Under the pieces are notes generated by a model. The model was not told the DNA's origin. It ran no database searches and saw only the letters and a list, made by a program, of their open reading frames with translations. The translations under genes were made by a program, and so were the position numbers. 64,000 nt of DNA from Candidatus Eiseniibacteriota bacterium. Lineage in GTDB: Bacteria > Eisenbacteria > RBG-16-71-46 > JABDJR01. Shown piece by piece: positions 3,767 to 21,551 of the stretch. Numbering within the stretch: the stretch's first letter is position 1; each line of letters opens with the position of its first letter. The stretch lies in NCBI GenBank assembly GCA_963762255.1, contig CAVXKA010000003.1, positions 864,001 to 928,000 of the forward strand, given 5' to 3'.

Positions 3767-5614
3767 TCAACCGGCCGTGAAGGCGGGCAAGGTGACGATG
3801 AAGGCCGTGCCGAGCCCCGGTCTGCTGCGCATGTCGATGCTGCCGCCGTGCATTTCCACAGCTTGTTGAACCAGCGCCAGCCCCACCCCGGTTCCCTCTT
3901 TCTTGGTAGTGAAGTAGAGATCGAACACGCTCGCCTGCAGTTCGACAGGGATCCCCTCGCCGCAATCTTCGACGGTTAGACGGACCCGCTGACCTACAGG
4001 GTACGCGGAAACAGAGATCGGCGCCGACCCTGCCGGAGACGCCTGGATCGCGTTGCGCAAGAGATTGAGGAGGGCTTGGCGAAGGACCTCCTCGTCCCCG
4101 TAGATCTCCGGCAGATTCTCGGCCACGTCGAGGGTGATCTCGACGCCCGCCAGGCGTGCCTCAGGCAGGACCAGCTCGCGCAGTTCGCGCAGAAACGGTG
4201 CCACATCGATCGGCTTGAGGCTCAGCTCCTGCAGCCGGGCCAACCGCAAAAACCCGTACACGACACGCTCCAGCCGGGCGATCTCGCGTTGCACCACATC
4301 CACGTGCGTTTGACTGGCGTCGCCCCCCGAGTCGCCCAGCTTCTGCTTGAGCAGCTCGAGATGGATGTTCATCGCGTTGAGCGGGTTGCGCACTTCGTGG
4401 GCCACCCCTGCCGCCATCTTCCCCAACCGCGAGAGCACCCGCGCGTGGTCGAGCATCTCCTGGATCTGCCGCATCCGGCCGTAGTCGCGCAGCGTAATCA
4501 TCGCGCCTTGCCGGCTCGGACCCTCCCCGACCACCTGGCAGGTGCCCAGATAGACCCGATCCCCTTCCCCCGTCGTGAACTCCATCGGGGCGGACTCCGG
4601 GCGGTGATCGCCGCCGAAAGCCTTGTCGACCATCTGCACCAGGGGATGACCCGCGGAGAGAACCTCGCCCAGATCCCGGCCGACCATCGCGCCGAACCCC
4701 GCACCGAGGATCCGGCATGCGGTTCGATTGGCCATGAGCACCTGACGGCGCGAATCGATCATGAGCAGGCCGTCGTCCACGGCATCGACAAGGCGGCGGA
4801 GCGTGTCCCCTTCGCTCACGAGCGTGTCGCGCTGGAGCAAGAGCTGCGCCCGCTCCTGGGAAAGCACCTCGCTCAGCGCGTTGATCTGGCGGGCCAGGTG
4901 ACCGACTTCATCCTGCGATCCCACCGGCACGCGATAACCGAAGTCGCCCCGCTGCAAGTGATCGATGCCTGCCTCGATGCGGCTCAGCGGCCGGAGGATG
5001 ACGATCCACGACACCGCGACGCCGAAGGCGGTGGCCAGGAGCACCTGCAGGATGAGCTTCACGATCTGGGTGCGAAGCACCGTCTGCATCTCTTCGCGCA
5101 GGAGTCCCGGCGAGAGGCCGACACGTACGGTGCCGAAGTCCCGATCGTTGAGGAGAACCGGCACCGAGATCTCCCATGCCTCGTGCTGGTGCACGATGGA
5201 CATGAACTGGCGCAGGAGCCCGAGCCCGCGTGCGGGGACGAGGCCGGGGTGCCGCGCGATCCGCGAACCGAGCTGCGTGCTGTCCGAGTGGCAGAGAACC
5301 AGATCGGTGGTGTCGGCCACCACCAGGTAGAGGACGGACGGCGTGAACTGCTGGGCGTCGGTCAGAACGCTCCTCAGGCGCGGGTCGCCCCGCACGACCT
5401 GAGCGGGGTCCGCGCCCGCCGCGCTGCGCAGCGAGATGGCGATCTGACTGATCACGAGGTTGGCGGCAAGCTCCGCGCGGGCCACCGCCGACTCGACCTC
5501 GACCCGGGTCAGCGTGGCAACCTCGACCATGGCCGAGCCCACCCCGATCAGAAACGCGAATAGCGTCAGCGCGAGGATGAGGACGAGGCGGATGCCGGGC
5601 CGTACCTTCGTCAC
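3767..5614 (-). CDS. Sensor histidine kinase (2 TM, periplasmic domain, HAMP, PAS, HisKA, HATPase)
   Basis: H-box AHEVRNPL, N-box NLLRNAIQA, DCGEGI, FTTKKEGTGVGL. GTG start overlaps the regulator stop (GTGA, 5614-5611). Confidence 0.93.
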   Translation of the reverse strand: MTKVRPGIRLVLILALTLFAFLIGVGSAMVEVATLTRVEVESAVARAELAANLVISQIAISLRSAAGADPAQVVRGDPRLRSVLTDAQQFTPSVLYLVVADTTDLVLCHSDSTQLGSRIARHPGLVPARGLGLLRQFMSIVHQHEAWEISVPVLLNDRDFGTVRVGLSPGLLREEMQTVLRTQIVKLILQVLLATAFGVAVSWIVILRPLSRIEAGIDHLQRGDFGYRVPVGSQDEVGHLARQINALSEVLSQERAQLLLQRDTLVSEGDTLRRLVDAVDDGLLMIDSRRQVLMANRTACRILGAGFGAMVGRDLGEVLSAGHPLVQMVDKAFGGDHRPESAPMEFTTGEGDRVYLGTCQVVGEGPSRQGAMITLRDYGRMRQIQEMLDHARVLSRLGKMAAGVAHEVRNPLNAMNIHLELLKQKLGDSGGDASQTHVDVVQREIARLERVVYGFLRLARLQELSLKPIDVAPFLRELRELVLPEARLAGVEITLDVAENLPEIYGDEEVLRQALLNLLRNAIQASPAGSAPISVSAYPVGQRVRLTVEDCGEGIPVELQASVFDLYFTTKKEGTGVGLALVQQAVEMHGGSIDMRSRPGLGTAFIVTLPAFTAG

Positions 5615-7047
5615 GCCGGACGGCCTCGGTACTTCCTGAGCTTGTTGTGGAGCGTGCGGGTGCTGATGCCGAGGATCTCCGCGGCTCGCGTCTTGTTGTC
5701 GCTCGTCTTGCGTAGCGTCTCGAGAATGAGGAGCTTCTCCGCCTCCTCGACCGTGCTGCCGACGCTCACGACCACCGTGGCGGCGTGCGAGCCGTTCGAG
5801 GGAACCGCGGCGGGTGCGAGGGTGACGGTCGCGGGCTGCTCCGCGAGCGGCGAGCCCTCGGCACGCGCCGGCGGAGGGGGGCCCAGACTGGGCAGATCGC
5901 AGACGTCGATGAGGGACCCCGCGGCGACGACGACCGCCCGCTCCACCACATTGCGCAACTCGCGGACGTTGCCCGGCCACCGGTGGGCGCGCAGCGCATC
6001 CTGCGCCGCCGCCGTGAAGCCGTCGAAGGTCTTGCCGTTGGCGCAGGCGAACTCGTGCAGGAAGTGTTGAGCGAGGAGCGGCACGTCCTGCAGCCTCTCG
6101 CGCAGCGCCGGAAGCGCGATGGTGAAGACGTTGAGACGGTAGAAGAGGTCTTCGCGAAAGCGGCCGCTCTGGAGCGCCCGACCGATGTCGGCGTTGGTGG
6201 AGGAGATGACGCGAACGTCGACCGGGATCTCCTGCCGACCTCCGACGCGCCGGATGCTGCGCTCCTCGAGAACGCGCAGCAGCTTCGCCTGAAGTTCGGG
6301 GGGCATCTCCCCGATCTCGTCGAGGAGGAGCGTGCCGCCGGTGGCGAGTTCGAAGCACCCGGCCCGATCCGCGGTGGCCCCGGTGAAGGAACCCTTCTGG
6401 TGGCCGAGGATCTCGCTTTCCAGCAACGACTGCGGGATGGCCGCGCAGTTGACGGCAACGAAGGGCCTGTTGCGCCGCGGGCTCATCTCGTGAAGCGTTC
6501 GCGCCACGACTTCCTTGCCGGTACCGCTTTCCCCGGTGATGAGCACTGATACACGGCTCGGCGCGGCCTGCCCGACGAGCCGGTAGACGTCCTGCATGAT
6601 CGGCGTGCGGCCGACCAGGTGGCCGAACTTCCCGCGCTCGGCGAGATCGCGCGTGAGCCGCAGCAATTCCTCGCGATCGCTCACGCGCTCGACCGCCTTC
6701 TCGAGAACCACCTTGAGTCGGGCGAGGTCGACCGGCTTGGTGAGGTAGTCGTAGGCGCCTTCGCGCATCGCCTGAGTCGCGTTCTCGATCGTGCCGTGGC
6801 CGGTGAGAAGGATGAATACGGCGTGGGGGAGCTCCTCGCGAACTGCGCTCATCAGCTCGATGCCGGACGGGCCGGGCATCATCAGATCGGAGAGCACGAT
6901 GTGAGGGGAGAACTCCTTGCAGATCGCCAGCGCGTCCCGCGCATCCGATGCCGGACGGCTCTTGTATCCCCAGCCGGAGATGAGCTCGGTGAGTCCGGCG
7001 CGCGCGGCCTCTTCATCGTCAACGACGAGGACTCGATACGATGTCAT
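5611..7047 (-). CDS. Sigma-54-dependent response regulator (NtrC/AtoC/ZraR family: REC-AAA+-Fis HTH)
   Basis: VLVVDDE receiver, Walker [15 protein letters not shown] (GAFTGA variant), [39 protein letters not shown]. Confidence 0.95.
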
Positions 7048-7122
7048 GGGGTGATCGCCTCCGTGGGCCGGATCCTCGATAGGCTGCTTCACCGCAGACT
7101 CCGGGCCGACGGGTGGAGACAA

Positions 7123-7138
7123 TGCGAGGCCCGTGCCG
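7123..7138 (-). promoter_or_regulatory. Candidate sigma-54 (-24/-12) promoter for the regulator/kinase operon
   Basis: Minus strand reads CGGCACGGGCCTCGCA, i.e. GG-N10-GC with a GGCACG core, about 76 bp upstream of the ATG. Confidence 0.55.
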
Positions 7139-7168
7139 GAGACCGAAGAACCATGCTACCTCCCAAAT

Positions 7169-7181
7169 TTCAATGAGTTAC
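7169..7181 (+). promoter_or_regulatory. Candidate IHF site
   Basis: TTTCAATGAGTTA versus consensus WATCAANNNNTTR (1 mismatch), in an AT-rich patch about 30 bp upstream of the leftward sigma-54 site. Confidence 0.35.
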
Positions 7182-7369
7182 AGCAATCAAAGGCAAACCT
7201 GAAGCCAAGACTCCAGGGACAAATCGAATGAGTGCGCAAATTTTACACGGTTTCGGCCATTCGCGCACCCCGGGGATAGGGACTATTCTTCGCGCAGGTT
7301 TTTGCCGAGCCTGCCAAGGATGCAGAGTGGATTGATCAATTCGAGCCTACCGGGGGGGGTATGGCCGTC

Positions 7370-7382
7370 CAAACCGTTGAAA
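7370..7382 (-). promoter_or_regulatory. Candidate IHF site
   Basis: Minus strand TTTCAACGGTTTG versus WATCAANNNNTTR (1 mismatch), just upstream of the rightward sigma-54 site. Confidence 0.35.
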
Positions 7383-7399
7383 ACACGTGATGCGTGGGG

Positions 7400-7415
7400 T
7401 GGCACCGCTCTTGCT
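7400..7415 (+). promoter_or_regulatory. Sigma-54 (-24/-12) promoter for the cytochrome operon
   Basis: TGGCACCGCTCTTGCT is an exact match to TGGCAC-N5-TTGCW and lies next to a sigma-54 activator gene. Confidence 0.8.
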
Positions 7416-7420
7416 CTTAG

Positions 7421-7700
7421 ACGCGGGTGGAAGACCGAACCGGAATTCGCCTGGTTGGATCTCCGGGCTAGGTTTGGCCAATCGAAGGCGATTCGGGCTT
7501 CCGAGAAGCCAACCCACGTGAAGCACGGTGGGGGGCCGGGCGGAATTGCTCGAAGAGCACGATGTTCGGTACGCCGCCCGGTCCCCCATCCCCCCCTCCT
7601 CGGCGAGCCGACCGGCGTCAGCGGCAAGCTCTGGTTGAACCGGACCACCGCCATGGACGGAGCGGTGGCCTGGTCGACCACCCAAAATGATGAACTGCAC
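7421..7700 (+). ncRNA. Candidate structured 5' leader or sRNA of unknown class
   Basis: Stems 7443-7452/7486-7494, 7453-7458/7478-7483, 7496-7501/7505-7510, 7527-7543/7574-7590 (17 bp with two G-U pairs) and 7645-7651/7662-7668. Confidence 0.35.
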
Positions 7701-7890
7701 CTTCGGGGGGGTTTCGTCTGGCACGACTTCGGGCTCCTCGGGGTGTTTCCCCCCGCTCGTGTTCACCCAGAATCCGGCTGGCGGCCGGGGTGGGAACCCC
7801 GGACCGGTCAAGGGGGTTTCGCTCTCGACCGATATCGATTGCAGGATCACCCTCAACTGAAAGCCCTCGGCTCCTCGTCACGGCATAGGT

Positions 7891-8754
7891 GTGCGTTTGA
7901 AACGGACTCTGTCGATCATCTTTGTCCTACTTGCTGGGATCGCGATCGCCGGCGCGCCGTACTACACTCTCCCCATGTCCGGACGGGTCCGCAGTTCCTT
8001 TCACGAGTGGCTCCGTCCCTCGGGCTATGTCGGTCAGTCGCTCGGCATCATCGGCCTCGCGTGCTTTCTCTTCCTCTGGCTCTACCCGGTGCGCAAGCAC
8101 TTTCCTCAACTGGCGCGCACGGGCTCTATCGCGCGGTGGCTCCACGTCCACGTCATCGCCGGGCTCGCGACGCCGTTCTTGGTGGCGCTCCATGCGGGGT
8201 TCCGCTTCTCGGGGCTGGCCGGCCTCGCCTTTGCAGCGATGGTCGTGGTCTGGATGAGCGGCATCGTCGGGCGCTACCTCTACGCCCGCATCCCCCGCAG
8301 CCGGACCGGGCTGGCACTGAGCATCCAGGAGATCGGAACCCAGCGAGAGGATCTGATCCGGCGCATCGCCGCCGCCACAGGCCTCCATCCAGCCGATGTC
8401 CGTAAGGACCTCGCGGTGGAAGACGTCATGCACAAGGGGCTCGGGAAGCGTCAAACGCTCCGCCTCCAGATCACGGGCGATCTCGCCCGCCGTCGCGCCG
8501 TGCGCGACTTCCGCGCGAGGATCCTCGCGGGCACAGGAGGGGCGGTGAACATCGACGCGGGCGCGCTCGACGAGGCGCTTCGGTGCGCCCGGCGGGAGCT
8601 CGCCCTCGCCCAGCAACTCCGACTCCTGGAAGGGACCCAGCGCGTCTTCCGCTTCTGGCATGTCGCCCATCGCCCGGTAGCAGTGACCGCGCTCGTCGCC
8701 GTCGCCGTTCACGTCGGCGTCGTGATCGCCGTCGGCAGCACGTGGTTCAGGTAG
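7891..8754 (+). CDS. Inner-membrane protein, ferric-reductase/cytochrome-b-like (putative heme b)
   Basis: About 5 TM segments with His-containing motifs WLHVHVIAG, ALHAG, FRFWHVAHRP and VAVHV. Confidence 0.7.
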   Translation: MRLKRTLSIIFVLLAGIAIAGAPYYTLPMSGRVRSSFHEWLRPSGYVGQSLGIIGLACFLFLWLYPVRKHFPQLARTGSIARWLHVHVIAGLATPFLVALHAGFRFSGLAGLAFAAMVVVWMSGIVGRYLYARIPRSRTGLALSIQEIGTQREDLIRRIAAATGLHPADVRKDLAVEDVMHKGLGKRQTLRLQITGDLARRRAVRDFRARILAGTGGAVNIDAGALDEALRCARRELALAQQLRLLEGTQRVFRFWHVAHRPVAVTALVAVAVHVGVVIAVGSTWFR

Positions 8755-8758
8755 CACG

Positions 8759-10183
8759 ATGATCGCACTCGTAACCACTGTCGCCTTCTGCGCGGTGACC
8801 GGCACCTTGATGGCGATCCATCTGCGGCGCAGCGCCTGCCGCGACCAGGCCGCCCCTGCCGTTTCCTGTCCGCGGTGCCGGGCCGAGGTCCCGGAAGGCC
8901 AGGATCGGTGCCCTCGGTGCGGCGTCCCGCAACAGATCTACGAGGTCGTGAGCGCGCAGACGGTGGTTCTGGAGAACGAGCCCGAAAAGGTCGCCGGGGA
9001 GATCGCACACGCCGTCGTACGCGCCGACAAGTGCCTCGGTTGCGGCACCTGTGTGGCCGCATGCCCCGAGCCGGGCGCGATCACGCTCCAGGGGAAGCTG
9101 GCAGTCGTCAATACGGACATCTGCCTGGGTCACGGCACCTGCGCGCAGGCCTGCCCTATCGGCGCGATCTCGCTGGGTGCGGGCGCGGCGGTGCAGCGCG
9201 TCGAGGTGCCGGAAGTGGACGCGGATTTCCAGTCCAACGTGCCCGGTGTCTACATCGTGGGCGAGCTCGGAGGGCGCGGCCTCATCAAGAACGCGATCAA
9301 CGAGGGAAAGGTCGCCATCGAAGCGGTGATGCGCGAGACGCAGCTCGGCGCGCGCCGCGGCGCCGCGGACGACGTCTACGACGTCATCATCGTCGGCTCG
9401 GGACCCGCGGGGTTGAGCGCGGGTCTCGAAGCGCACCGCGCCGGCCTGCGCTACGTCATCCTGGAGCAGGGAACACCCGCCGACACGATTCGCAAGTACC
9501 CGCGGCACAAGCTCCTCCTCGCCGAACCGGTTTCCGTTCCGCTCTACGGAGATCTCTGGGTCGCAGACGCCTCGAAGGAGAGCCTCATCCAGGTGTGGGA
9601 GACGATCATCGCCAACACCGGGATCGCGATCCGCACCGATCACCGCGTCGAGGACGTCGTCCGCGACGGAGAGAACTTCAAGGTTCGCACCAGCAAGGGG
9701 GAGTACCAGGCGCGGCGGGTGGTGCTGGCGATCGGCCGGCGCGGCACCCCGCGCCGCCTAGGGGCGCCCGGCGAGGAGCTGGCCAAGGTCGTCTACGACA
9801 TCGTGGAAATGGACGCGTTCGCCGGCCGCAGAGTTCTGGTGGTAGGCGGAGGCGACAGCGCCGTGGAATCCGCCCTCGGGTTGTCCAACCAGAAGGGCAC
9901 GGTGGTGCACCTCGCCTACCGCGGCCGCGAATTCTCCCGAGTCAAGGAGCGCAATCGCGTCAAGCTCGACGAGGCCACGGCGGCGGGGCGCGTGACGCTG
10001 CTGCTGGACACGGACGTGCTGCGGATCCTCGACGAGGAGGTCGTGCTCAAGGTCGGTGGGCAGGAGACGAACCTCCCCAACGACAACGTCATCATTCGCA
10101 TCGGCGGAGAGCCCCCGTCCTCGTTCCTCGAGCGCGCCGGCGTGCGCGTGGTCCAGAAGGACGTACCCCTGGTGGCGGCATGA
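8759..10183 (+). CDS. Membrane-anchored 4Fe-4S dicluster / FAD-NAD(P)H oxidoreductase (TrxB/YpdA/FNR-like)
   Basis: N-terminal TM; CPRC...CPRC Zn ribbon; CLGCGTCVAACP and CLGHGTCAQACP; FAD motif VGSGPAGLSA; NAD(P)H motif VGGGDSA followed by YRGREFSR. Confidence 0.88.
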   Translation: MIALVTTVAFCAVTGTLMAIHLRRSACRDQAAPAVSCPRCRAEVPEGQDRCPRCGVPQQIYEVVSAQTVVLENEPEKVAGEIAHAVVRADKCLGCGTCVAACPEPGAITLQGKLAVVNTDICLGHGTCAQACPIGAISLGAGAAVQRVEVPEVDADFQSNVPGVYIVGELGGRGLIKNAINEGKVAIEAVMRETQLGARRGAADDVYDVIIVGSGPAGLSAGLEAHRAGLRYVILEQGTPADTIRKYPRHKLLLAEPVSVPLYGDLWVADASKESLIQVWETIIANTGIAIRTDHRVEDVVRDGENFKVRTSKGEYQARRVVLAIGRRGTPRRLGAPGEELAKVVYDIVEMDAFAGRRVLVVGGGDSAVESALGLSNQKGTVVHLAYRGREFSRVKERNRVKLDEATAAGRVTLLLDTDVLRILDEEVVLKVGGQETNLPNDNVIIRIGGEPPSSFLERAGVRVVQKDVPLVAA

Positions 10184-10202
10184 CCGGCGAAGGCTGCAGG
10201 GA

Positions 10203-12295
10203 ATGACCCGCCATGCGTCACGATGGCTGCGGGCGGTTCTGATGATGGGCGCGCTGCTGCTGCCGCGCGCCTCGTCCGCGCAGATCTCGCCCGGTGAGCT
10301 CTCGCGGGACCATCGCTCGCTCGAAGGTCCGCTCAACTGCCGCTCGTGCCACGCCGGCAAGACGAAGGAGATGGATCGCAACTGCCTCTCCTGTCACCAG
10401 GACATCCAGCGGCTGCGGGAGCAGAAGCGAGGATTTCACGCGCGAAACGGGGACGCACCGTGCGCGAGCTGCCATCCCGATCATGCAGGACGGGACTTCG
10501 AGCTGATCGCCTGGGACGGCGGCTCGTTCGAGAAGTTCGACCATGCGAAGGCCGGCTGGCCGCTGGCGGGCAAGCACGCCAAGGCCGCCTGCCGCGACTG
10601 CCACCAGCCCAAGCATCAGTCGGTCGAGTTCATGAAGCTCTCCAAGCGCGAGGATCCCGCCGAGAGCTGGGTCGGCCTCGAAACGGCCTGCGCCTCGTGC
10701 CACGAAGACACGCACCGAGGGGCGCTCGGCCCCGAGTGCGCCCGCTGCCACGGGAACGAAGCCTGGAAGCCCGCCACCGCCTTCGACCACGCCGCCACCG
10801 CCTTCGCGCTGACCGGCAAGCACACCGACGTGGAGTGCGCGAAGTGCCACTCGGCGGCCTCGCTCTCTCTCGCCCGCGACGACCAGGGCCGTCCGATCCC
10901 GCTGTACAAGCCGCTCCCCCACGCCGAGTGCGGCGCCTGTCACCGCGATCCGCACGAGAACCGGTTGGGCGCGGCGTGCGCTTCCTGCCACAAGACCTCC
11001 GGGTTCCGCGATCTCGCGTCCGGCCCGTTCAACCACAGCCTCACCCGCTTCGCGTTGCGCGGCGCGCACGCCTCGGTGGAATGCGCGAAATGCCATGACC
11101 CGGTGAAGGCGGGAGGCAAGCGGCCGGCTCACGATCGCTGCGACACCTGTCACCGCGATGCCCATGCGGGTCAGACCCTGCTCAAGGGCGCATCGTCCGA
11201 GCCCGTCGCTCCCGACTGCGCGGCGTGTCACGACGAGCGCGCGTTCCGGCCTTCGGTCTTCACGGTGGAGCGCCACGCCACCACCGCCTATCCGCTCGAC
11301 GGCAAGCACCGCGCGATCGAATGCCGCGCGTGCCACGCGAAGATCCCGGCAGGAGTCCCGAAGGACTCGCTCGGAACCGCCGGCGTGCTCATGAAACCCA
11401 AGTTCGCCGCGTGCCGCGACTGCCACCCGAGTCGCACGGAAAGCAGCTCGCGCGGCGCGCCGACGGGGGCGCGTGCGAGTCCTGCCATCGGGTCCAGGGG
11501 TGGAAGCCCAGCCTCTTCACCGTCGAGGACCACAGCCGCCTGAAGCTGGCGCTTCAGGGCCGCCACGCCGAGGCGGAGTGCGCCGCCTGTCACGGGCCGC
11601 GCCGCAAGGATCTGCCCGCGTTGCCCTCCGCGGAGGTGACCGGAAAGGCCGGCGTTCTCCTCGCCCTGGAGTCGGCGGAGTGTGTGAGCTGTCACGTGGA
11701 TCCGCATGCCGGAAGACTCACAGCATCCGGGAAGCCTGAGCCGGCCGTGTGCGCGTCATGCCACGGATCGGGAGGGTTCGCTCCGTCGACGCTCGACATG
11801 GTGCACCACGCCGCGCTGGGGTTCGCTCTTGAAGGGGCCCACGCGGCCGCCTCCTGCCTGGACTGCCATGCAGAACTTGCACGGCCTCGGCGCGCCTCCA
11901 CCCTCATTCTGGCCGCCATGAAGGAACCGCTGCTTCCGTTCGGCCAGAAGCGCACCGCGTGCGTCGACTGTCATGAGGACGTGCATGGCGGGCAGTTCAA
12001 GATGCGCGACGACGGCGGCGCCTGCGGCGGTTGCCACGGGCAGGAGAGCTTCAAGCCGGCCGTCCGGTTCGACCACGATCGCGGCACGGCCTTTGCTTTG
12101 CAGGGCGCCCATGCCTCGGTCGCTTGCGCGAAATGCCACATCGGCCGGGTGGACCCGGACGGCGTGAAGCGCATCGTGTATCGCCCCGTCCCACGGGATT
12201 GCGAGAGTTGCCACGGAGGGAAGCGCATGGAAGGGATGGGCGTGGAGACGCGGGCCGGCGCGCGGCCGGCACAGAGCCAGGAGGGGGAACGGTGA
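10203..12295 (+). CDS. Multiheme cytochrome c, 23 CxxCH (one frameshift near 11428)
   Basis: Signal peptide, then QISPGELSRDH. 14 CxxCH lie in the first frame and 9 in the second; the frames join as ...CRDCHP/ESHGKQL... Confidence 0.9.
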
Positions 12296-15200
12296 AGCCG
12301 ACCAGGACGTCGACTCATCACGCTGCTCCTGGCGGCGGCGTGCCTGCTTGGACGACCCGAGCAAGGGACCGGCGCTCCCGATCCCGACTACCCGCATGGG
12401 ACCTTTGAGGAGGACTGCACGACCTGCCACTCCCCCGAGGCATGGAAACCTGCGAGCTTCAGCAAGGATTTCGACCACGCCGCGTTCGGAATCCCCCTGG
12501 AGGGCGCGCACGCTCAGACCACCTGTCTGAACTGCCATCGCACGCTCGAGTTCGCGGACACCGGGACGCGCTGCGGCGGACTGCCACCAGGACATTCACC
12601 AGAGTGAGATGGGGCCGGAGTGCGCCGACTGCCACACCACGCGCAGTTTCGGCGATCGCGAGCGCATCGAGGCGCGCCACCAGGTCACCCGGTTTCCTCT
12701 GACCGGCGCCCACAGCACGCTGGATTGCGAGAGTTGTCACGGAGGGTCGGGGCAGGGGCACCTGATCTTCGTCGGCACGGCCTCGGAGTGCGCCTCCTGC
12801 CATACGAACAACTACCAGGCTACCCAGCAGCCTCCGCACGCGCTGAACGCGTTCTCCACGGAATGCACCCTCTGCCATGGAACGTCGCAATGGGATGGCG
12901 CCGTGCTGTCCGCCTCCGGGTTGCACTCCTTCGATCACGGGAAGGGCGGGTTCCCGCTGAACGGTGCCCATGCCCGGCAAGAGTGCATGAGTTGCCACGG
13001 AGACGGGACATTCGCCGGCAAGAGCATCGAGTGCGCGTCCTGCCACCAGGCCGACTACGACGGCACGACCGACCCGAACCATGCCACGGCCGGATTCGGG
13101 CTGGAATGCGCGAGCTGCCACGGGATGGAGCAGTGGAGGGGGGCAGCCTTCGATCACAATAGAACCGACTTCGCGCTCACCGGCTCCCACGTTGAACAAG
13201 AGTGTCGATCCTGCCACGGCGGCGGGGTCTACAACGGCTTGAGCACGCAGTGCGCGTCATGCCATCAGGCCGACTACGACGATACGGACGACCCGGACCA
13301 CGCGGCCGCCGGGTATCCCTTGGAGTGCGCAAACTGCCACAACACCGGAGACTGGGAGGAGGCCGAGTTCGATCATAACAAGACCCAGTTCGCGTTGACC
13401 GGGTCGCACGTGGAGCAGGAATGCCGCTCGTGCCACGGCGGCGGGGTCTACAACGGCTTGAGCACGCAGTGCGCGTCATGCCATCAGGCCGACTACGACG
13501 GCACGACCGACCCGAATCATGCCCTGGCCGGGTTCGGGGTGGAATGCGCCACATGCCACGGAACGACGCAGTGGAATGGCGTTGTCTTCGATCACACCCA
13601 GACCCAGTTCGCCCTGACCGGCTCGCACATCGAGCAGGAGTGCCGCTCCTGCCACGGCGGCGGGGTCTACAACGGCTTGAGCATGCAGTGCGCGTCATGC
13701 CACCAGGCCGACTATGACGGCACGGACGACCCGAACCACGCTCTTGCCGGGTATCCGCTGGCGTGCGAGACCTGCCACAACACCGGAGACTGGGAGGAGG
13801 CCGACTTCGATCACAACCAGACCCAGTTCGCGTTGACCGGATCGCACGTGGAGCAGGAGTGCCGCTCCTGCCACGGCGGCGGAGTTTACGACGGGCTGAG
13901 TATGGAGTGCGCCTCCTGCCATCAGGCCGATTACGACGATACGGACGACCCGAACCACGCTCTGACCGGGTTCGCTCTGGAATGCGCGACCTGCCACGGG
14001 ACGACACAGTGGGATGGAGCAACCTTCGATCACAATCAGACCGACTTCGCACTGACCGGGGCGCACGTGGGCCGGGAGTGCGCGAGCTGCCACGGTGGTG
14101 GGGTCTACGACGGACTGAGCATGGAGTGCGCCTCCTGCCATCAGGCCGACTACAGCGCCACGACGGATCCAAACCATGCTGCCGCGGGATATCCGTTGGA
14201 CTGCAAGAGCTGTCACGGGACTGCACAGTGGGACGGCGCGACCTTCGATCACAACCGGACCCAGTTCCCCCTGACCGGTTCGCACATCGAGCGGGAGTGC
14301 CGCTCGTGTCACGGCGGTGGGGTCTACGACGGGTTGGCTACCCAGTGCGCATCCTGCCATCAAGCCAACTACAACAGCACCACCGACCCCGCTCACGCGG
14401 CAGCCGGTTTCGCGCTTCAGTGCGAGACTTGCCACAACACGACGCAGTGGGACGGGGCGACTTTCGATCATACCCAGACCCAGTTCGCGTTGACCGGGTC
14501 GCACATCGAGCAGGAGTGCCGCTCATGTCATGGCGGCGGGGTCTACAACGGACTGAGCATGGAGTGCGCCTCCTGCCACCAATCGGATTACGACGGCACC
14601 ACCGACCCGAACCACGCAGCCGCCGGGTATCCCCTGGAGTGCGAGACCTGTCACGGGACGGCACGGTGGGACGGAGCCGACTTCGATCACAGCCAGACCC
14701 AGTTCGCGCTGACCGGCTCGCACATCGAGCAGGAGTGCGCGAGTTGTCACGGCGGCGGGGTCTACAACGGGCTGAGCATGGAGTGCGCTTCGTGCCACCA
14801 ATCAGATTTCAGCGCGACTACCGACCCCAATCACGCGGCGGCCGGCTTCGCGCTTCAGTGCGAGACCTGTCACAACACGACGCAGTGGGACGGGGCGACC
14901 TTCGATCACAACCAGACCCAGTTCGCGCTGACCGGCTCGCACATCGAGCAGGAGTGCCGCTCATGTCATGACGGCGGGGTCTACAACGGGCTGAGCATGG
15001 AGTGCGCCTCCTGCCACCAGCCCGACTACGACACGACCACCGACCCGAACCACGCCGCTGCGGGGTATCCGTTGGACTGCCAGACCTGCCACGGAACGGC
15101 ACAGTGGGACGGAGCCGACTTCGATCACGCCCAGACCCTCTTCCCGCTAACTGGATCGCATATCGAACAGGAATGCCGCTCATGTCACGGCGGCGGCGTC

Positions 15201-18200
15201 TACGACGGGTTAGCTACCGAGTGCGCCTCCTGCCACCAGCCCGACTACGACGGAACGACCGATCCCAACCACGCGGCGGCCGGCTTCGCGACTTCAGTGC
15301 GAGACCTGCCATAACACGGCACAGTGGGACGGGGCGACCTTCGATCACAGCCAGACCCAGTTCGCACTGACCGGGTCGCACATCGAACAGGAGTGCCGCT
15401 CGTGTCACGGCGGCGGCGTCTACGACGGGTTAGCTACCGAGTGCGCCTCCTGCCACCAGCCCGACTACGACGGAACGACCGATCCCAACCACGCGGCGGC
15501 CGGCTTCGCGCTTACAGTGCGAGACCTGCCATAACACGACACAGTGGGACGGGGCGACCTTCGATCACAGCCAGACCCAGTTCGCACTGACCGGGTCGCA
15601 CATCGAACAGGAGTGCCGCTCGTGCCACGGCGGCGGCGTCTACGACGGGTTGGCTACCGAGTGCGCCTCCTGCCACCAGCCCGACTACGACGGAACGACC
15701 GATCCCAACCACGCGACCGCTGGTTACTCCACCCTGTGCGAGACGTGCCACGGCACGATGAAGTGGGAAGGCGCAGTATTCAATCACAGCCGCACGGACT
15801 TCCCGCTGACCGGGGCGCACGTCGAGCAGGAATGCCTGAGCTGCCACACCGATGGCGTCTACGACGGCCGAGCACGCAATGCGCCTCGTGCCACCGAGCC
15901 GAACTACAACGGGACGACGGATCCGGATCATGCGGCGGCCGGCTTCCCGACGAACTGCCAGACCTGCCACAACACGACGCAGTGGGAAGGGGCCACCTTC
16001 AACCACTCCAGACACAGCTTCCCGCTGACGGGATGCACACGTTCGCCAGAGTGCGACGCCTGCCACGGCGGCGGGGTCTTCGACGGCGAACCACGGAGTG
16101 CTTCTCCTGCCACCAGGCCGACTTCAACGGGACGACGAATCCCAATCACGTCAGCGCCGGCTTCCCCACGATTGCGCAGACGTGCCACACCACCAGCGGT
16201 GGCCGGGGGCCACCTTCAACCACTCAGACGATCTTCCCGCTGACCGGGGCCCACACCAGCGCGGACTGCAGCAGCTGCCACACCGGCGGGCGTCTACCAG
16301 GGGACCTCACACGCTGTGCTATTCCTGCCACCAGGCCGACTACAACGGGACCACGAATCCCAATCACGTCAGCGCCGGGTTCCCCCACGACTGCAGCACC
16401 TGTCACACCACGACAGCGGCTGGCCGGGAGCCACCTTCAACCACTCAGATCGCTTCCCGCTGACCGGCGGCTCACATCAGCGTCGGACTGCAGCACCTGC
16501 CACAGCGGCGGCGTCTACCAGGGACTGACCACCCTGTGCTATGCCTGCCACCAGGCCGACTACAACGGGACCACAAATCCCAATCACGCGCAGCGCCGGG
16601 TTCCCCGACCTGCAGCACCTGTCACAACACGAGCGTGGGCGGGAGCCGACTTCAACACAACCAGACTCGCTTCCCGCTGACCGGCGGCCACACGGCGTCA
16701 GGAGTGCCGCAACTGCCACGCCGGCGGTGTCTACCAGGGCATGACCACCGCTGTGCTACTCCTGCCACCAGGCCGACTACAACGGGACGACGAATCCCAA
16801 TCACGCGCAGGCCGGCTTCCCCATGAGTGCCAGACCTGCCACACCACCACGGCTGGGCCGGAGCGACCTTCAATCACTCCAGAGCGATCTTCCCGCTGAC
16901 CGGCGCCCACACGAACGTGGAGTGCAGCACTTGCCACGCCGGCGGCGTCTACAAGGGACTCGCACCCTGTGCTACTCCTGCCACCAGGCCGACTACAACG
17001 GGACAACGATCCCAATCACGCAGCGCCGGGTTTCTCACGATTGCGAGACCTGCCACACCATCAACGGCTGGCCGGGGGCCACCTTCAGCCATCGGACAGC
17101 TTCCCGATGACCGGGGCACACACGGCGTGCGAGCTGCACGAACTGCCACGCCGGCGGCGTCTACAGGGACTCGCACCCTCTGCTACTCCTGCCACCAGGG
17201 CGACTACAACGGGACCACGAATCCCAACCACGCCAACGCCGGTTTCTCACCGACTGCAGCACGTGCCACACCTCCACGGCTGGCCCGGAGCCACCTTCAA
17301 TCACCACGAGCTTCCCGCTGACCGGGGGCACAGCAACGTGGAGTGCAGCACCTGCCACGCCGGCGGCGTCTACAAGGGACTCGCACCCTGTGCTACTCCT
17401 GCCACCAGGCCGACTACAGCGGCACCACGAATCCCAACCACGCCCAGGCCGGCTTCTCGCCTGCAGTGCAGACCTGCCACACCACAACGGCTGGCCGGGA
17501 GCCACCTTCAACCACTCACAGACGAGCTTCCCGCTGACCGGCGCCCACATCGACAGGAGTGCCTGCCTCCTGCCACGGCGGCGGGGTGTACAACGGACCT
17601 CCACCGAGTGCTACTCCTGCCACCAGGCCGACTACGACGGGACCACCGACCCCAATCACGCCCGCCGGCTTCCCGGCTGACTGTGCCAGACGTGTCACAA
17701 CACCACGACCTGGCTTGGCGCCGTCTTCGATCACAACCAGTCGCAGTTTCCCCTCACCGGGGCCCATCTGGCCGTGGAATGCATGAGCTGCCACGGCGGC
17801 GGGGTCTACAACGGGTTGAGCACGCAATGCGCCTCCTGCCACCAGTCGGACTACAACGGCACGACGGATCCCAATCACGCCGCCGGCCGGGTTCTCGCTC
17901 CCAATGCCAGACCTGCCACACCACGACCGCCTGGCCGGGCGCGACATTCAACCACAGCCAGACGAGCTTCCCGCTTACGGGGTCGCACGTTCAGCAAGAG
18001 TGCCTGAGCTGTCACGGCGGCGGGGTCTACAACGGGTTGAGCACGCAATGCGCCTCCTGCCATCAGTCGGACTACAACGGCACGACGGACCCCAACCATA
18101 CCGCCGCCGGATTCCCGCTCCAGTGCCAGACCTGCCACAACACCACAACCTGGCAGGGGGCCACGTTCGATCACGATTCGCAGAACTTCCCGATCTATTC

Positions 18201-18397
18201 CGGCAGGCACCGCGACAAGTGGGATGTGTGCACCGACTGCCACACGAACGCGACCAACTACTCGGTCTTCTCCTGTCTGGGCTGCCACCCGCACTCCGAC
18301 AAGTGGGAAGACCGACTCGGATCACCGGGGCGAGTCGGGCTACAGGTACGACAGCGCGGCCTGCTACAACTGTCATCCTCGGGGTCAGGGGGGCTGA
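12292..18397 (+). CDS. Giant repeat-built multiheme cytochrome c, ~2030 aa, ~82 CxxCH (many frameshifts)
   Basis: GTG overlaps the upstream stop and follows GAGGGGG. 36 CxxCH are in the intact ORF 12609-15314; the same module continues across shifting frames to CYNCHPRGQGG-TGA at 18397. Confidence 0.85.
13149..18165 (+). repeat. Intragenic tandem repeat, 23 units of ~219 bp (73 aa, three hemes each)
   Basis: Unit F(D/N)HxxTxFxLTGxHxxxECxxCHxGGVYxGLxxxCxSCHQxDYxGTTxPNHxxAGF/YxxxCxTCHxTxxWxGAx. Units start at 13149, 13368 and so on; 5017 bp / 219 is about 23. Confidence 0.95.
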
Positions 18398-20014
18398 TGT
18401 TCGAGTTCATCCGCGGCGCGATCCTCCTCCTGGCCGCGCTGCTCGGCCTCTCCACCGTCGCGGGGGGCAGGAGGCACCGATCTCTCCCGCCGGCGCCGAC
18501 TTCCGTGGCCCATGTCACTTACATCACCGGGGGGCTCGTCTACCTGGACGCCGGCCGCGAGGACGGACTCGAAGTGGGCCGGGAACTGAGCGTGGAGCGC
18601 GAGGGTGCGGTCATCGCGACGATTCGGGTCGAGCACGTCGCCTCCCATCGCGCGTCGTGCTCGATCGTCGGTACCGGCGAGGCGCCTCGCGAGGGCGACG
18701 TGGTCCGTTACGCCCCGCGACCGGGAACGGAGTCGGGCGATTCGACCGCCTCGTCGGCCCCGATCCAGGTCGGGACGGGTCGTGACGGCCGGACTCTTCG
18801 CCAGCTCGGCCTGCGGGGACGGGTCGGCATCCGGTATCTCACCGCGCTAGATCAGACCGATTTCGGGGCCGACTTCACGCAGCCGTCGCTCGATCTTCTC
18901 CTCACGGGAACCGCGGTCGCCGGCAGCCCCTTCAGCTTCGCGCTCGACACCCGCGCGCGCCGCACCTACCGCACGCACGCGGACGGATCGCACACGGATG
19001 ACGGACGGACGCGGGTCTACCGGCTGAACGCGTCGCACCAGGCGACCGGATCCCCGCTGCGGATCTCGCTGGGACGCCAGGTGTCACCGGATCTCGCCTC
19101 GGTGAGCCTCTTCGACGGCGCGCTCGCCGAGTACGGACGCGCGACCACGGCCTGGGGGCTCTTCGGCGGGGCCACCAGCCCGATCCGGAGTCGTACGGCG
19201 TTAGCTCGCACGTCCTGGAGTACGGGACCTACGCCCGCGTGCAGAGCCCGCAGGGGCACTCGCTCAGGTGGTCGGCCACCGGGGGCGGGATTCGCTCGCT
19301 CGTGGACGGTGTACGCGATCGCGATTACGTCTTCTTGCGCGGGCAGCTCATGGACTCGCGCGTGTACGGATACGTGAGCCAGGAGATCGACGTCGACGAG
19401 TGGCGCGCCTCGGAGGGCGACCGGCGGCTCTTCTCGCCCACCAGCACGTACGCCGGCTTTCGGTGGCAGGCGGTGGAGTGGCTGAGCCTCAATGCCGGTT
19501 TCGACAACCGGAGGAGCGTGCGCCTCTATCAGGACCCGAGACCCCGGAGCACCGAATTCGACTACAGCTTCCGGCGAGGTCTGCGCGGAGGAGCGACGCT
19601 GCGACTCCAGGCAATCGCTTCACGCTGGGGACCAGCGCGCAGACCAACCGGGGCGGTTCGGGCGGCTCCTCCGACTCGTACACGATCACCTCACGGGCCG
19701 CCCGCGTGTCCCCTCTCTCGATCGACCTGGCCAGCCGGCACACGCGCTTCACGGGTCCGCTCACCGAGGGCTGGCTGCATTCCGCGAGCGCTGCCGCGCC
19801 GATCGGTCCTCGTCGCCGCGTGGAATTCGAAGGCGGCCGGCGTCAGGAAACCCGTTCGTTCGGTCCGGCCACATCCGTCGCCACGACGTGGTACGGGGTG
19901 AACGCCGACGTGGGATTGTGGTCGGGCTGGTACTTCCTGCTCTCGGTGACGTCCACGCGCGGCGACACCGAGAAGAACGATCAGATCTACTCGAGCCTCT
20001 CCTACCGCTTCTGA
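18397..20014 (+). CDS. Probable outer-membrane beta-barrel protein with small N-terminal beta domain (frameshifts near 19180-19210 and 19540-19620)
   Basis: ATG overlaps the cytochrome stop (TGATG); signal peptide; alternating amphipathic strands (TYAGFRWQ, LSLNAGFD, WYGVNADVGL, WYFLLSVT); ends YSSLSYRF with a terminal Phe. Confidence 0.72.
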
Positions 20015-20126
20015 CCGCGCGATCCTCGCCGTCCCGATCCCGCTTCTGCTACCCTGTCGAAACGTGCGCGGGTCGAGGCGGCCGTGCTCGCGCAGACCGC
20101 AGGCGTTCGCCGCAGGGGAGGATGCG

Positions 20127-20319
20127 TTGCCGAAGAAGAAGCAAGCGGCCGGTCCGAGATCGACTCCACCGACCCGGGACAAGACGAAACGACCCTCGCG
20201 CGGGGCCGGCACCGGCGCCCTCTGCGCCGAAGCGCAGGCCGACGGCGTCCCCTGTTTCGAGCTGGGCCGGGAATGCGCAACCTGCGAACGGGCGAGAGCG
20301 AGGCCGCGAGAGATCCTGA
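20127..20319 (+). CDS. Small basic protein with four-Cys motif (stop probably displaced by an indel)
   Basis: RBS AGGGGAGG then TTG: MPKKKQ...LCAEAQADGVPCFELGRECATCERA. A TGA at 20317-20319 is one base out of frame. Confidence 0.45.
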
Positions 20320-20334
20320 GCCGCGCGACCGCGA

Positions 20335-21551
<1,217 letters not shown>

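Follow-up and report, generated by a model that had tools for sequence, protein, structure and literature searches.

On the evidence of its sequence, the region 12292–18397 of the window (the whole 64-kb stretch of DNA analyzed here) is a real but badly assembled gene, predicted to encode a cytochrome of ~2,030 residues with about 82 heme sites. The favored reading, held with a probability of roughly 0.8, is that of a single secreted c-type cytochrome, about 2,035 residues long and harboring 82 bis-His hemes, which would be encoded in a PCC3-type operon and whose frame breaks would be technical. From the N-terminus, the protein would carry a Sec signal peptide, a divergent part with 7 hemes, 24 head-to-tail, cytochrome-c7-like tri-heme modules of 73 aa, and a 3-heme C-terminal cap. 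The 82-heme cytochrome adds a large new member to a known family and does not represent a new type of protein. The locus comprises the following features:

3767–6358, − strand: sensor histidine kinase (Pfam HATPase_c, HisKA, HAMP, PAS, and sCache)
5611–7122, − strand: sigma-54-dependent response regulator (Pfam Response_reg, Sigma54_activat at 5.3e-70, and HTH_8)
7400–7414, + strand: exact sigma-54 −24/−12 consensus, intergenic and upstream of the operon
7891–8754, + strand: PCC3-type inner-membrane protein of 287 aa, a putative di-heme b carrier (60% identical to orf313 of locus L019)
8759–10183, + strand: Fe-S (2x[4Fe-4S]-type) and FAD/NAD(P)-binding oxidoreductase (Pfam Pyr_redox_3 at 3.5e-44, Fer4 families)
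10056–12295, + strand: 23-heme cytochrome, the “periplasmic MHC” of the cluster (23 CxxCH; periplasmic location predicted)
12292–12983, + strand: giant cytochrome, from its start through the signal peptide and the divergent N-terminal part (7 CxxCH, 1 of them split, from comparison with the intact ortholog P0002)
near 12313 and near 12575, + strand: frameshifts in the N-terminal part (P0002 comparison)
12984–18228, + strand: 24 tandem tri-heme modules of 73 aa (219 bp), u01–u24 (repeat finding, PF14522, TIGR04257)
18229–18397, + strand: C-terminal cap with 3 CxxCH (same ending as P0002)
18397–20014, + strand: putative outer-membrane protein (~530 aa), spread over three frames (1, 3, 2)

Scanning the three + strand frames of 12292–18397 yields 78 intact CxxCH motifs, of which 36 share one open frame (12531–15311), as the first-pass annotation had reported for one uninterrupted ORF. 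Single-base indels break another four: u15, u21, and u22 each hold one, and the fourth, in the N-terminal part near 12575, reads CGDCH in P0002. The intact and cut motifs together give 82, bearing out the earlier total of ~82 hemes; the earlier partition into 10 + 23 × 3 + 3 is replaced by 7 N-terminal, 24 × 3 modular, and 3 C-terminal motifs. Over 6106 nt (about 2035 aa), this corresponds to 24.8 aa per heme. The clustering is far beyond chance because all 101 CxxCH motifs on the + strand of the window lie within 10338–18362, and the − strand has one.

Tandem Repeats Finder places one tandem array at 13022–18174 with a period of 219 bp, 23.6 copies, 76% matches, and 4% indels. In the 10 clean units, each 73-aa module has six invariant His residues, three in CxxCH and three in PNH, FDH, and LTGSH, in agreement with the conserved His described in the earlier annotation. 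Met occurs at position 15 in 6 of these 10 units and elsewhere twice, and no Met is conserved. A motif scan of the giant cytochrome found no CxxCK, as had been claimed, and likewise no CX3CH or CX4CH. The earlier reading as a non-catalytic protein of repeated tri-heme modules, with all hemes predicted to be bis-His ligated, is supported. The protein is rich in Gly, Ala, Thr, Ser, Cys, and His; Pfam PF14522 matches it in 11 stretches (156 bits, 1.9e-46), and TIGR04257 scores 49.4 bits (74.7 in P0002) vs a cut-off of 40. Units u01–u10 are 67–88% identical at the protein level, and over their 45 pairs the mean pS is 0.55 and the mean pN is 0.15. This ratio of 0.28 argues that the tri-heme repeat is real coding sequence. 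The cap contains one frameshift after its second CxxCH and ends with a stop at 18395–18397; the final CxxCH lies at most 17 aa from the C-terminus in 102 of 120 homologs.

P0002 has 1747 aa and 70 CxxCH motifs at 89% identity, and other intact relatives are G006 (1595 aa, 61 motifs), G034 (2071 aa, 85 motifs), and G024 (1249 aa, 49 motifs). The motif counts of close relatives, 61, 70, about 77, 82, and 85, agree with the proposal that length is set by repeat number. At E ≤ 1e-3, 4215 clusters at 50% identity match, and the 8000 candidates scored include 370 homologs of at least 1578 aa. The comparison of heme counts recommended by the first-pass annotation gives a range of 59–137 motifs in the 120 homologs listed of these 370, with at least 82 motifs in 52 of the 120. 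Genome mining has described giant multiheme cytochromes with up to 112 motifs (PMC11495043), up to 116 motifs (bioRxiv 10.64898/2026.05.27.727921), and more than 100 motifs (bioRxiv 10.1101/2025.05.29.656830). P0006 (Bryobacterales; 2799 aa, 112 CxxCH), a homolog over its full length (46% identity, 99% coverage), is presumably the 112-motif Paludibaculum protein of PMC11495043, as the motif counts agree, and the Saprospiraceae and Ignavibacteria hosts named there occur among the homologs. The available text of the genome-mining reports gives counts and speculation on electron transfer or a capacitor; module anatomy and a link to PCC3 are not described in it.

The earlier description of a single chain holds for the repeat and its heme motifs but not for one ORF in the assembly, where at least 21 steps from one CxxCH motif to the next involve a change of frame, 19 of these after 15222. 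One further frameshift lies about 7 codons past the GTG start. Units u01–u10 are in frame, and u11–u23 (~2.8 kb) carry about 62 indel bases. The first-pass annotation was silent on these many frameshifts.

We read the frame changes as long-read-type assembly errors rather than gene decay because rpoB (2 frames) and rpoC (3 pieces) of the same genome (3 contigs) are split too, because 154 of the 156 heme-binding Cys/His codons of u11–u23 are kept with no in-frame stop after column-wise frame correction (the stop-codon check that had been suggested), and because relatives have intact ORFs of 61, 70, and 85 motifs. The adjoining 23-heme and outer-membrane genes are also frame-split relative to intact orthologs, and units of the CY[SA]CH subtype, as seen in the broken part, occur in intact homologs as well (e.g., 16 copies in P0084). 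Several observations count against assembly error: the indel density at 15.3–18.4 kb is 20–50 times the background of rpoB, rpoC, and the neighboring genes; homopolymer runs of at least 4 are equally frequent (8.2 per kb) in broken and clean units; and DNA identity from unit to unit in the broken part is only 80–87%.

It is very unlikely, yet conceivable, that the distal half (about 15.3–18.4 kb) is a genuine pseudogene remnant, with a product of at most ~36–40 hemes or none at all. Such decay would account for the at least 19 frame changes after 15222 and for an indel density far above that of neighboring genes; in addition, the composition shifts in 16–18 kb (GC skew −0.19), and G007, of the same family, also shows its homolog in 4 frame runs. 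However, so many neutral indels should come with many destructive substitutions, whereas the ligand codons are kept and stops are absent, the orthologs are intact, and breaks of the same kind affect the essential genes rpoB and rpoC.

A different concern, which we consider rather unlikely, is that the gene is real but its unit number was altered by collapse or expansion in the assembly, such that the true heme number differs from 82. The adjacent units u11 and u12 are 98% identical, and this pair may have been duplicated in the assembly; across u11–u23 the consensus is of poor quality, and the nearest ortholog, P0002, has 20 full units vs 24 here. On the other hand, most units differ by 13–29% in DNA, enough for long reads to place them, and relatives span 49–85 motifs, which puts 82 inside the family range. 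A search for near-identical DNA in the metagenome collection found none, the best locus being 41% identical.

Upstream, the 5′ part of the listed histidine kinase ORF overlaps the next gene, and its true start probably lies near 5600. The response regulator gene is divergent from the cytochrome operon, and the intergenic site is the only exact match in the window (1 vs 0.12 expected) to the sigma-54 −24/−12 consensus. Expression of the operon probably depends on a sigma-54 promoter controlled by the neighboring two-component system.

The inner-membrane protein has 4–5 hydrophobic helices in a crude hydropathy scan and no match in Pfam or NCBIfam; all 28 aligned homologs keep SGxxG and two W-x3-H-x13-H motifs without change (L022 was dropped for an internal stop). 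The 23-heme gene is split by one frameshift near 11427 and aligns in two frames to an intact 707-aa, 23-heme ORF of L019; its intact orthologs have 23 CxxCH. Its stop overlaps the giant-cytochrome start as GTGA, and the stop of the giant gene is in turn overlapped by one base by the ATG of the outer-membrane gene. The product of the latter is 50–57% identical, in three pieces, to a 526-aa ORF of L019, has no Pfam, NCBIfam, or PDB match, and carries a signal peptide and the C-terminal end ...SYRF; in 17 of 21 homologous ORFs, F or W is the last residue or lies at most two residues from the end. On the basis of the signal peptide and the C-terminal aromatic residue, it is a putative beta-barrel. 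Across 43 related loci, the inner-membrane homolog is present at 32, the flavoprotein homolog adjoins the cytochromes in 32, and the outer-membrane homolog directly follows the giant gene in 29; a 20–25-heme cytochrome stands beside the giant one in most loci. The genome has 3 matches to cytochrome-c assembly (PF01578).

By gene content, the operon matches the PCC3 porin-cytochrome cluster described by He et al. 2017 (PMC5566968), the giant gene being its predicted “extracellular” MHC. The same four components occur in the same order: inner-membrane protein, ~21-heme cytochrome, large repeat cytochrome, and (putative here) outer-membrane protein. As described for PCC3 (PMC5566968), the inner-membrane protein has about 300 aa and five TM helices, with SGXXG on TM4 and WX3HX13H on TM3/TM5; the periplasmic MHC has about 21 heme sites (21–27 in Gallionellaceae); the extracellular cytochromes, called molecular wires, reach 85 heme sites, and those built of repeats have 22–39 aa per heme; and an adjacent outer-membrane beta-barrel porin is included. 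The translation of the window gene, at 287 aa, shows SGxxG and both W-x3-H-x13-H motifs, 10056–12295 has a comparable motif number with 23 CxxCH, and the giant cytochrome combines 82 motifs in 24 units with 24.8 aa per heme. Proteobacterial loci of PCC3 architecture (L035, L038, L041, L042, L044, and L045) were retrieved as homologs, with identities of 25–36% for the inner-membrane protein (E 6e-8 to 3e-16), 40–46% for the flavoprotein, and 28–34% for the cytochromes; this comparison covered these six retrieved loci.

There are several differences from the proteobacterial clusters. In five proteobacterial loci, the cytochromes are followed by 745–880-aa proteins to which the ~530–560 aa protein of the window is not detectably similar (no tblastn similarity at E ≤ 1e-5 in 8 proteobacterial loci). 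Two large proteobacterial cytochromes have a heme spacing of ~45 aa, in contrast to the regular 68–75-aa tri-heme units here. The present hosts lie outside Proteobacteria, the nearest titled locus being a Candidatus Eisenbacteria MAG, and the main text of PMC5566968 does not mention a neighboring Fe-S flavoprotein for PCC3.

A covalently continuous heme wire, which the first-pass annotation contrasted with OmcS/OmcZ filaments, is already in print (PMC10138318, PMC5566968), with GSU1996 and GSU2210 as single-chain examples (PMC10138318). GSU1996, GSU0592, and GSU2210 of Geobacter sulfurreducens (PMC10138318; PDB 3OV0) are likewise single polypeptides of tandem c7-type tri-heme domains, a likeness consistent with three CxxCH per 73 aa, the PF14522 matches, and a TIGR04257 (nanowire_3heme) score above cut-off. 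A profile of 48 four-module segments finds 3ov0 at E 6.9e-6; neither the single sequence nor the unit profile has a significant match among solved chains in the PDB. The Geobacter proteins differ in having 12–27 hemes vs 82 and, in GSU1996, one His-Met heme per domain, where the present units have six invariant His and no conserved Met. They are described as periplasmic and without a PCC3-type operon.

The best solved structure for the four-module profile is PDB 1z1n (E 2e-10; patchy alignment, accuracy 0.3–0.66), a 16-heme high-molecular-weight cytochrome, compact and multi-domain, from a sulfate-reducer membrane complex; it is likewise built of c3/c7-like units. OmcS, OmcE, and OmcZ filaments are non-covalent polymers of 4–8-heme subunits. 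Like these extracellular filaments, the predicted product would carry c-type hemes in close succession over a long range, at a location predicted to be extracellular, but its length is encoded in one gene. None of the filament chains is among the PDB matches of the four-module protein, the unit profile, or the four-module profile.

A lipoprotein signal had been suggested for the giant cytochrome; it would call for a lipobox ([LVI][ASTVI][GAS]C) that closes the signal peptide and is kept among orthologs. The N-terminal region is hydrophobic in 99 of the 120 long homologs. The window protein has AAAC after LLL, P0002 at 89% identity has AAAF, and no Cys is present at the N-terminus of the L019 protein; of 120 long homologs, only 1 shows a lipobox-like motif. 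Given the F in P0002 and this single occurrence, the suggestion is not supported.

We infer bis-His ligation, cell location, direction of electron flow, and shape for the giant cytochrome. Closely packed hemes would carry electrons between the cytoplasmic membrane and the outside of the cell, with the 23-heme protein bridging the periplasm. Anchored at, or threaded through, the outer-membrane protein, the giant cytochrome would extend the heme chain outward and could also store charge. AlphaFold models of PCC3 extracellular cytochromes are long and mostly linear (PMC10734462). An unlikely alternative is that the protein is a periplasmic electron store (capacitor), as proposed for GSU1996, and not an extracellular wire; it has no lipobox or obvious anchor, and 82 hemes would hold 82 electrons. 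Against storage in the periplasm, the gene is translationally coupled to the outer-membrane gene, a pairing kept in 29 of 43 loci, and at about 1 nm per heme, the figure for GSU1996, the extended protein would be longer than the periplasm width. Furthermore, the periplasmic role in the PCC3 model (PMC5566968) already has a fitting candidate in the separate 23-heme cytochrome. A capacitor role itself is in print for single-chain heme wires and giant cytochromes (PMC10138318, PMC10734462, PMC7399161, PMC11495043).

A broader proposal, which is speculative, is that PCC3 conduits are envelope-spanning systems very widespread beyond Proteobacteria (Eisenbacteria, Bacteroidota, Ignavibacteria, Acidobacteriota, Verrucomicrobiota, Calditrichota, and others) and form a cytoplasm-to-exterior redox chain with a tunable outer wire. 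The cytoplasmic Fe-S/FAD NAD(P)-type oxidoreductase would be a fifth component, so far undiscussed, and its pairing with the di-heme-b membrane protein would be reminiscent of a split NOX/ferric-reductase. The chain would run from cytoplasmic pyridine nucleotide or ferredoxin to an ~80 nm outer heme wire, bypassing the quinone pool, and wire length would be tuned, between 49 and 137 hemes, as 73-aa tri-heme modules are gained or lost.

The favored reading of a secreted 82-heme cytochrome places a protein of a little-known phylum-level lineage in a described, functionally untested conduit type (PCC3) and would make the 73-aa tri-heme array the form of the PCC3 outer cytochrome across many non-proteobacterial phyla. 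If the frameshifts in this genome are technical, heme counts from called genes would be badly underestimated in such assemblies. If the conserved Fe-S flavoprotein is a real partner, electrons would enter the PCC3 conduit at a different point from the one proposed.

The giant cytochrome is encoded by the fourth gene of a tight + strand operon, upstream of which lies a divergent pair of regulatory genes:

3767-6358, − strand, histidine kinase, pairing with the response regulator
5611-7122, − strand, sigma-54 response regulator, divergent from the operon
7891-8754, + strand, membrane protein of 287 aa with 4-5 hydrophobic helices
8759-10183, + strand, Fe-S and FAD/NAD(P) oxidoreductase with two 4Fe-4S-type motifs
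between the oxidoreductase and the giant gene, + strand, 23-heme cytochrome
12292-18397, + strand, giant cytochrome
directly after the giant gene, + strand, putative outer-membrane protein (~530 aa; signal peptide; ends in ...SYRF)

The giant gene starts with a GTG that shares the sequence GTGA with the stop of the 23-heme gene (12292-12295), and at its other end its stop runs into the following gene's ATG as TGATG (18395-18399). These overlaps suggest translational coupling of the 23-heme, giant, and outer-membrane genes.

Tandem Repeats Finder detects one array in the giant gene (13022-18174; 219-bp period, 23.6 copies, 76% matches, 4% indels), which can be divided and aligned into 24 tri-heme units of 73 residues, from u01 at 12984 to u24 at 18001. 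A scan of the three forward frames finds 78 intact CxxCH motifs in 12292-18397. Across the whole window, the + strand harbors 101 such motifs, all in 10338-18362, and the − strand harbors one. Indels cut four motifs of the giant gene: an N-terminal motif and a motif in each of u15, u21, and u22. With the unit count as assembled, the intact and cut motifs together give an intended protein of 7 + 72 + 3 = 82 CxxCH in ~2,035 residues (24.8 residues per heme), which reproduces the ~82 hemes of the first-pass annotation. The 36 motifs that it placed in one ORF also recur as the largest same-frame group, in an open stretch at 12531-15311 (ORF 12609-15314, 901 aa).

The single chain proposed in the same annotation is obtained after frame correction; as assembled, however, the gene switches frame at least 21 times from one motif to the next. 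Of these switches, 19 lie after 15222, and from 15298 onward the motif moves among frames. An additional shift occurs ~seven codons past the GTG start at 12292. Units u01-u10 contain no indels, and u11-u23 contain ~62 indel bases when set against an in-frame unit. Such damage could reflect either decay of the gene or errors in the assembly. In the host genome (4.14 Mb, three contigs), outside the window at G000:C2:1285412-1293342, rpoB spans two frames and rpoC is broken into three pieces, one of which contains stops. Next to the giant gene, the 23-heme gene is split near 11427, and the downstream outer-membrane gene lies in three frames relative to intact orthologs. Because rpoB, rpoC, and these neighbors are all split, the single-base indels are a property of the assembly; indel errors occur in it genome-wide, and gene calls and heme counts taken from it are unreliable. 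In u11-u23, moreover, 154 of 156 Cys/His ligand codons survive, and column-wise correction leaves no in-frame stop, a pattern that decay with ~60 indels would not leave. Thus, judging from the sequence, the frame changes of the giant gene are most likely assembly errors, and the protein is a single chain only once they are corrected.

The indel density is much greater after 15.3 kb than elsewhere. Homopolymers were considered as the cause of this local excess and rejected, since clean and broken units have the same run density. The units past 15.3 kb are only 80-87% alike, with the exception of the neighbors u11 and u12 (15174-15613), which are 98% identical and each contain one additional A, in slightly different places. 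Such a pair points to very recent duplication or conversion of the unit, or else to a duplication made in assembly. Scans for near-identical DNA returned 36 loci from metagenome contigs (best 41% identical) and 40 loci from genome contigs (best 65%), neither set being close enough for a frame check. A homolog in a same-family genome (L015, 5250-11162) has ~77 CxxCH in four frame runs, and its distal part is likewise frame-broken. Strong strand composition bias is seen at 16001-18000 (GC skew −0.19, AT skew +0.20), across units of a CY[SA]CH subtype that is also present in intact homologs.

The ten clean units, u01-u10, share 67-88% protein identity. Each harbors six invariant histidines, three in CxxCH and one each in PNH, FDH, and LTG[SA]H, confirming the three extra conserved histidines per module that had been noted earlier. 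No conserved methionine was found in the units, and no CxxCK or longer heme motif in the giant cytochrome, as the first-pass annotation had it for CxxCK. The 45 pairs of clean units average 0.55 for pS and 0.15 for pN, indicating that the repeats are old and under purifying selection. The 901-aa ORF matches Pfam Cytochrome_C7 (PF14522) in 11 stretches (1.9e-46), and the NCBIfam nanowire_3heme domain is matched at 49.4 bits (cut-off 40). Additional Pfam matches in this ORF, to DnaJ_CXXCXGXG, YhfX-like_C, TackOD1, and T2SSN, were dismissed as by-products of the Cys/Gly-rich repeat. A PDB sequence search with a four-module protein gave no matches, and a profile of the unit gave weak matches only. 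A profile of 48 four-module segments matched the 16-heme cytochrome 1z1n (2e-10) and GSU1996 (3ov0; 6.9e-6). On sequence grounds, solved structures are related to the module only distantly.

The closest ortholog, P0002, is intact (1747 aa, 70 motifs) and 89% identical across the 901-aa ORF. Intact orthologs are also found in a same-family genome (1595 aa, 61 motifs) and in two same-class genomes (2071 aa, 85 motifs; 1249 aa, 49 motifs). Among 8000 candidates scored, 370 matches are homologs of at least 1578 aa; the 120 matches listed have 59-137 CxxCH, with 82 or more in 52 of them, and the top of this range is P0005 (3415 aa, 137 motifs). A search of 1.84 billion representatives gave 4215 matches at E<=1e-3 and 830 at E<=1e-30. 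The closest titled locus belongs to a MAG labelled Candidatus Eisenbacteria (65%), and others belong to MAGs of Ignavibacteria, Acidobacteriota, Verrucomicrobiota, Saprospiraceae, Calditrichota, Chloroflexia, Planctomycetota, and several Proteobacteria. The non-proteobacterial giants have regular arrays of 68-75-aa units; two proteobacterial giants have ~45-aa spacing. The lipoprotein signal suggested for the N-terminus does not hold up, as a lipobox-like motif occurs in one of 120 homologs and P0002 has F in place of the cysteine.

The heme spacing of GSU1996 is ~1 nm per heme. By this figure, the giant cytochrome would be about 80 nm long if extended; its location and the direction of electron flow are what we infer.

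Porin-cytochrome gene clusters of the PCC3 type were defined by He et al. 2017 (PMC5566968), who describe an inner-membrane protein of ~300 aa that is proposed to carry two b hemes and that has five helices, an SGXXG motif, and WX3HX13H twice. Apart from the porin, the window shows the PCC3 features tested; as a putative porin, it offers the downstream protein with its signal peptide and ...SYRF end, whose profile gave no matches in a PDB search. In an alignment of 28 membrane-protein homologs, one further homolog having been left out for an internal stop, SGxxG and two W-x3-H-x13-H motifs are invariant. Of 43 related loci, a number of which are truncated at contig ends, 32 have the membrane protein, 32 the Fe-S flavoprotein, and 29 the downstream protein; a 20-25-heme cytochrome lies beside the giant one in most. 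In five proteobacterial loci (L038, L039, L041, L042, and L045), the protein after the cytochromes has 745-880 aa and ends in ...GYRW.F or similar; searches using the 526-aa outer-membrane protein found in the clade of the window did not detect these proteins. In L038, a porin-like gene lies between 23-heme and 47-heme cytochromes.

A covalent wire of hemes is a reasonable reading of the protein, though one already in print for this very family. He et al. report an 85-site PCC3 protein and call such proteins molecular wires (PMC5566968), and AlphaFold models of PCC3 cytochromes are described as long and mostly linear, with a capacitor role also mentioned (PMC10734462). One paper describes a porin that follows cytochromes of 24 and 49 hemes, with heme number varying (PMC7399161), and others report proteins with up to 112 motifs (PMC11495043), >100 motifs (bioRxiv 10.1101/2025.05.29.656830), and 116 motifs (bioRxiv 10.64898/2026.05.27.727921). 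GSU1996 (12 hemes) and GSU2210 (27) are single-chain wires of c7 domains with one His-Met heme per domain (PMC10138318); in contrast, the giant cytochrome lacks this His-Met heme. Domains of GSU1996 have been expressed in E. coli with the ccm plasmid pEC86 (PMC10138318). The supplementary tables of PMC5566968 (Tables 3 and 4) and PMC11495043 (S4 and S5) may include non-proteobacterial clusters or this family. A 2025 preprint still calls PCC3 functionally unverified (10.1101/2025.02.27.639646). The giant cytochrome is a large addition to an already known kind of protein.

An exact TGGCAC-N5-TTGC, which we take to be the sigma-54 −24/−12 consensus, occurs at 7400-7414 (+) between the operon and the divergent regulator (0.12 expected per window). 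Non-coding sequence of ~480 nt separates this element from the first operon gene. Sigma-70 promoter and terminator scans of 7000-21000 gave nothing over chance, and no Rfam family or tRNA turned up in scans of the window. Genes for cytochrome-c assembly are present in the genome, with two PF01578 matches at G000:C3:939190-941313, ~11 kb past the window end, and a third on C2.

The flavoprotein gene adjoins that of the PCC3-type inner-membrane protein; the two point the same way in non-proteobacterial loci and are divergent in proteobacterial loci. A flavoprotein was not found as a PCC3 component in a search of the main texts of PMC5566968 and the 2025 Sideroxydans preprint. Paired with the putative di-heme-b membrane protein, the window's flavoprotein is reminiscent of a split NOX/ferric-reductase. 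This conserved Fe-S flavoprotein beside a di-heme-b membrane protein is the most interesting point that the work leaves.
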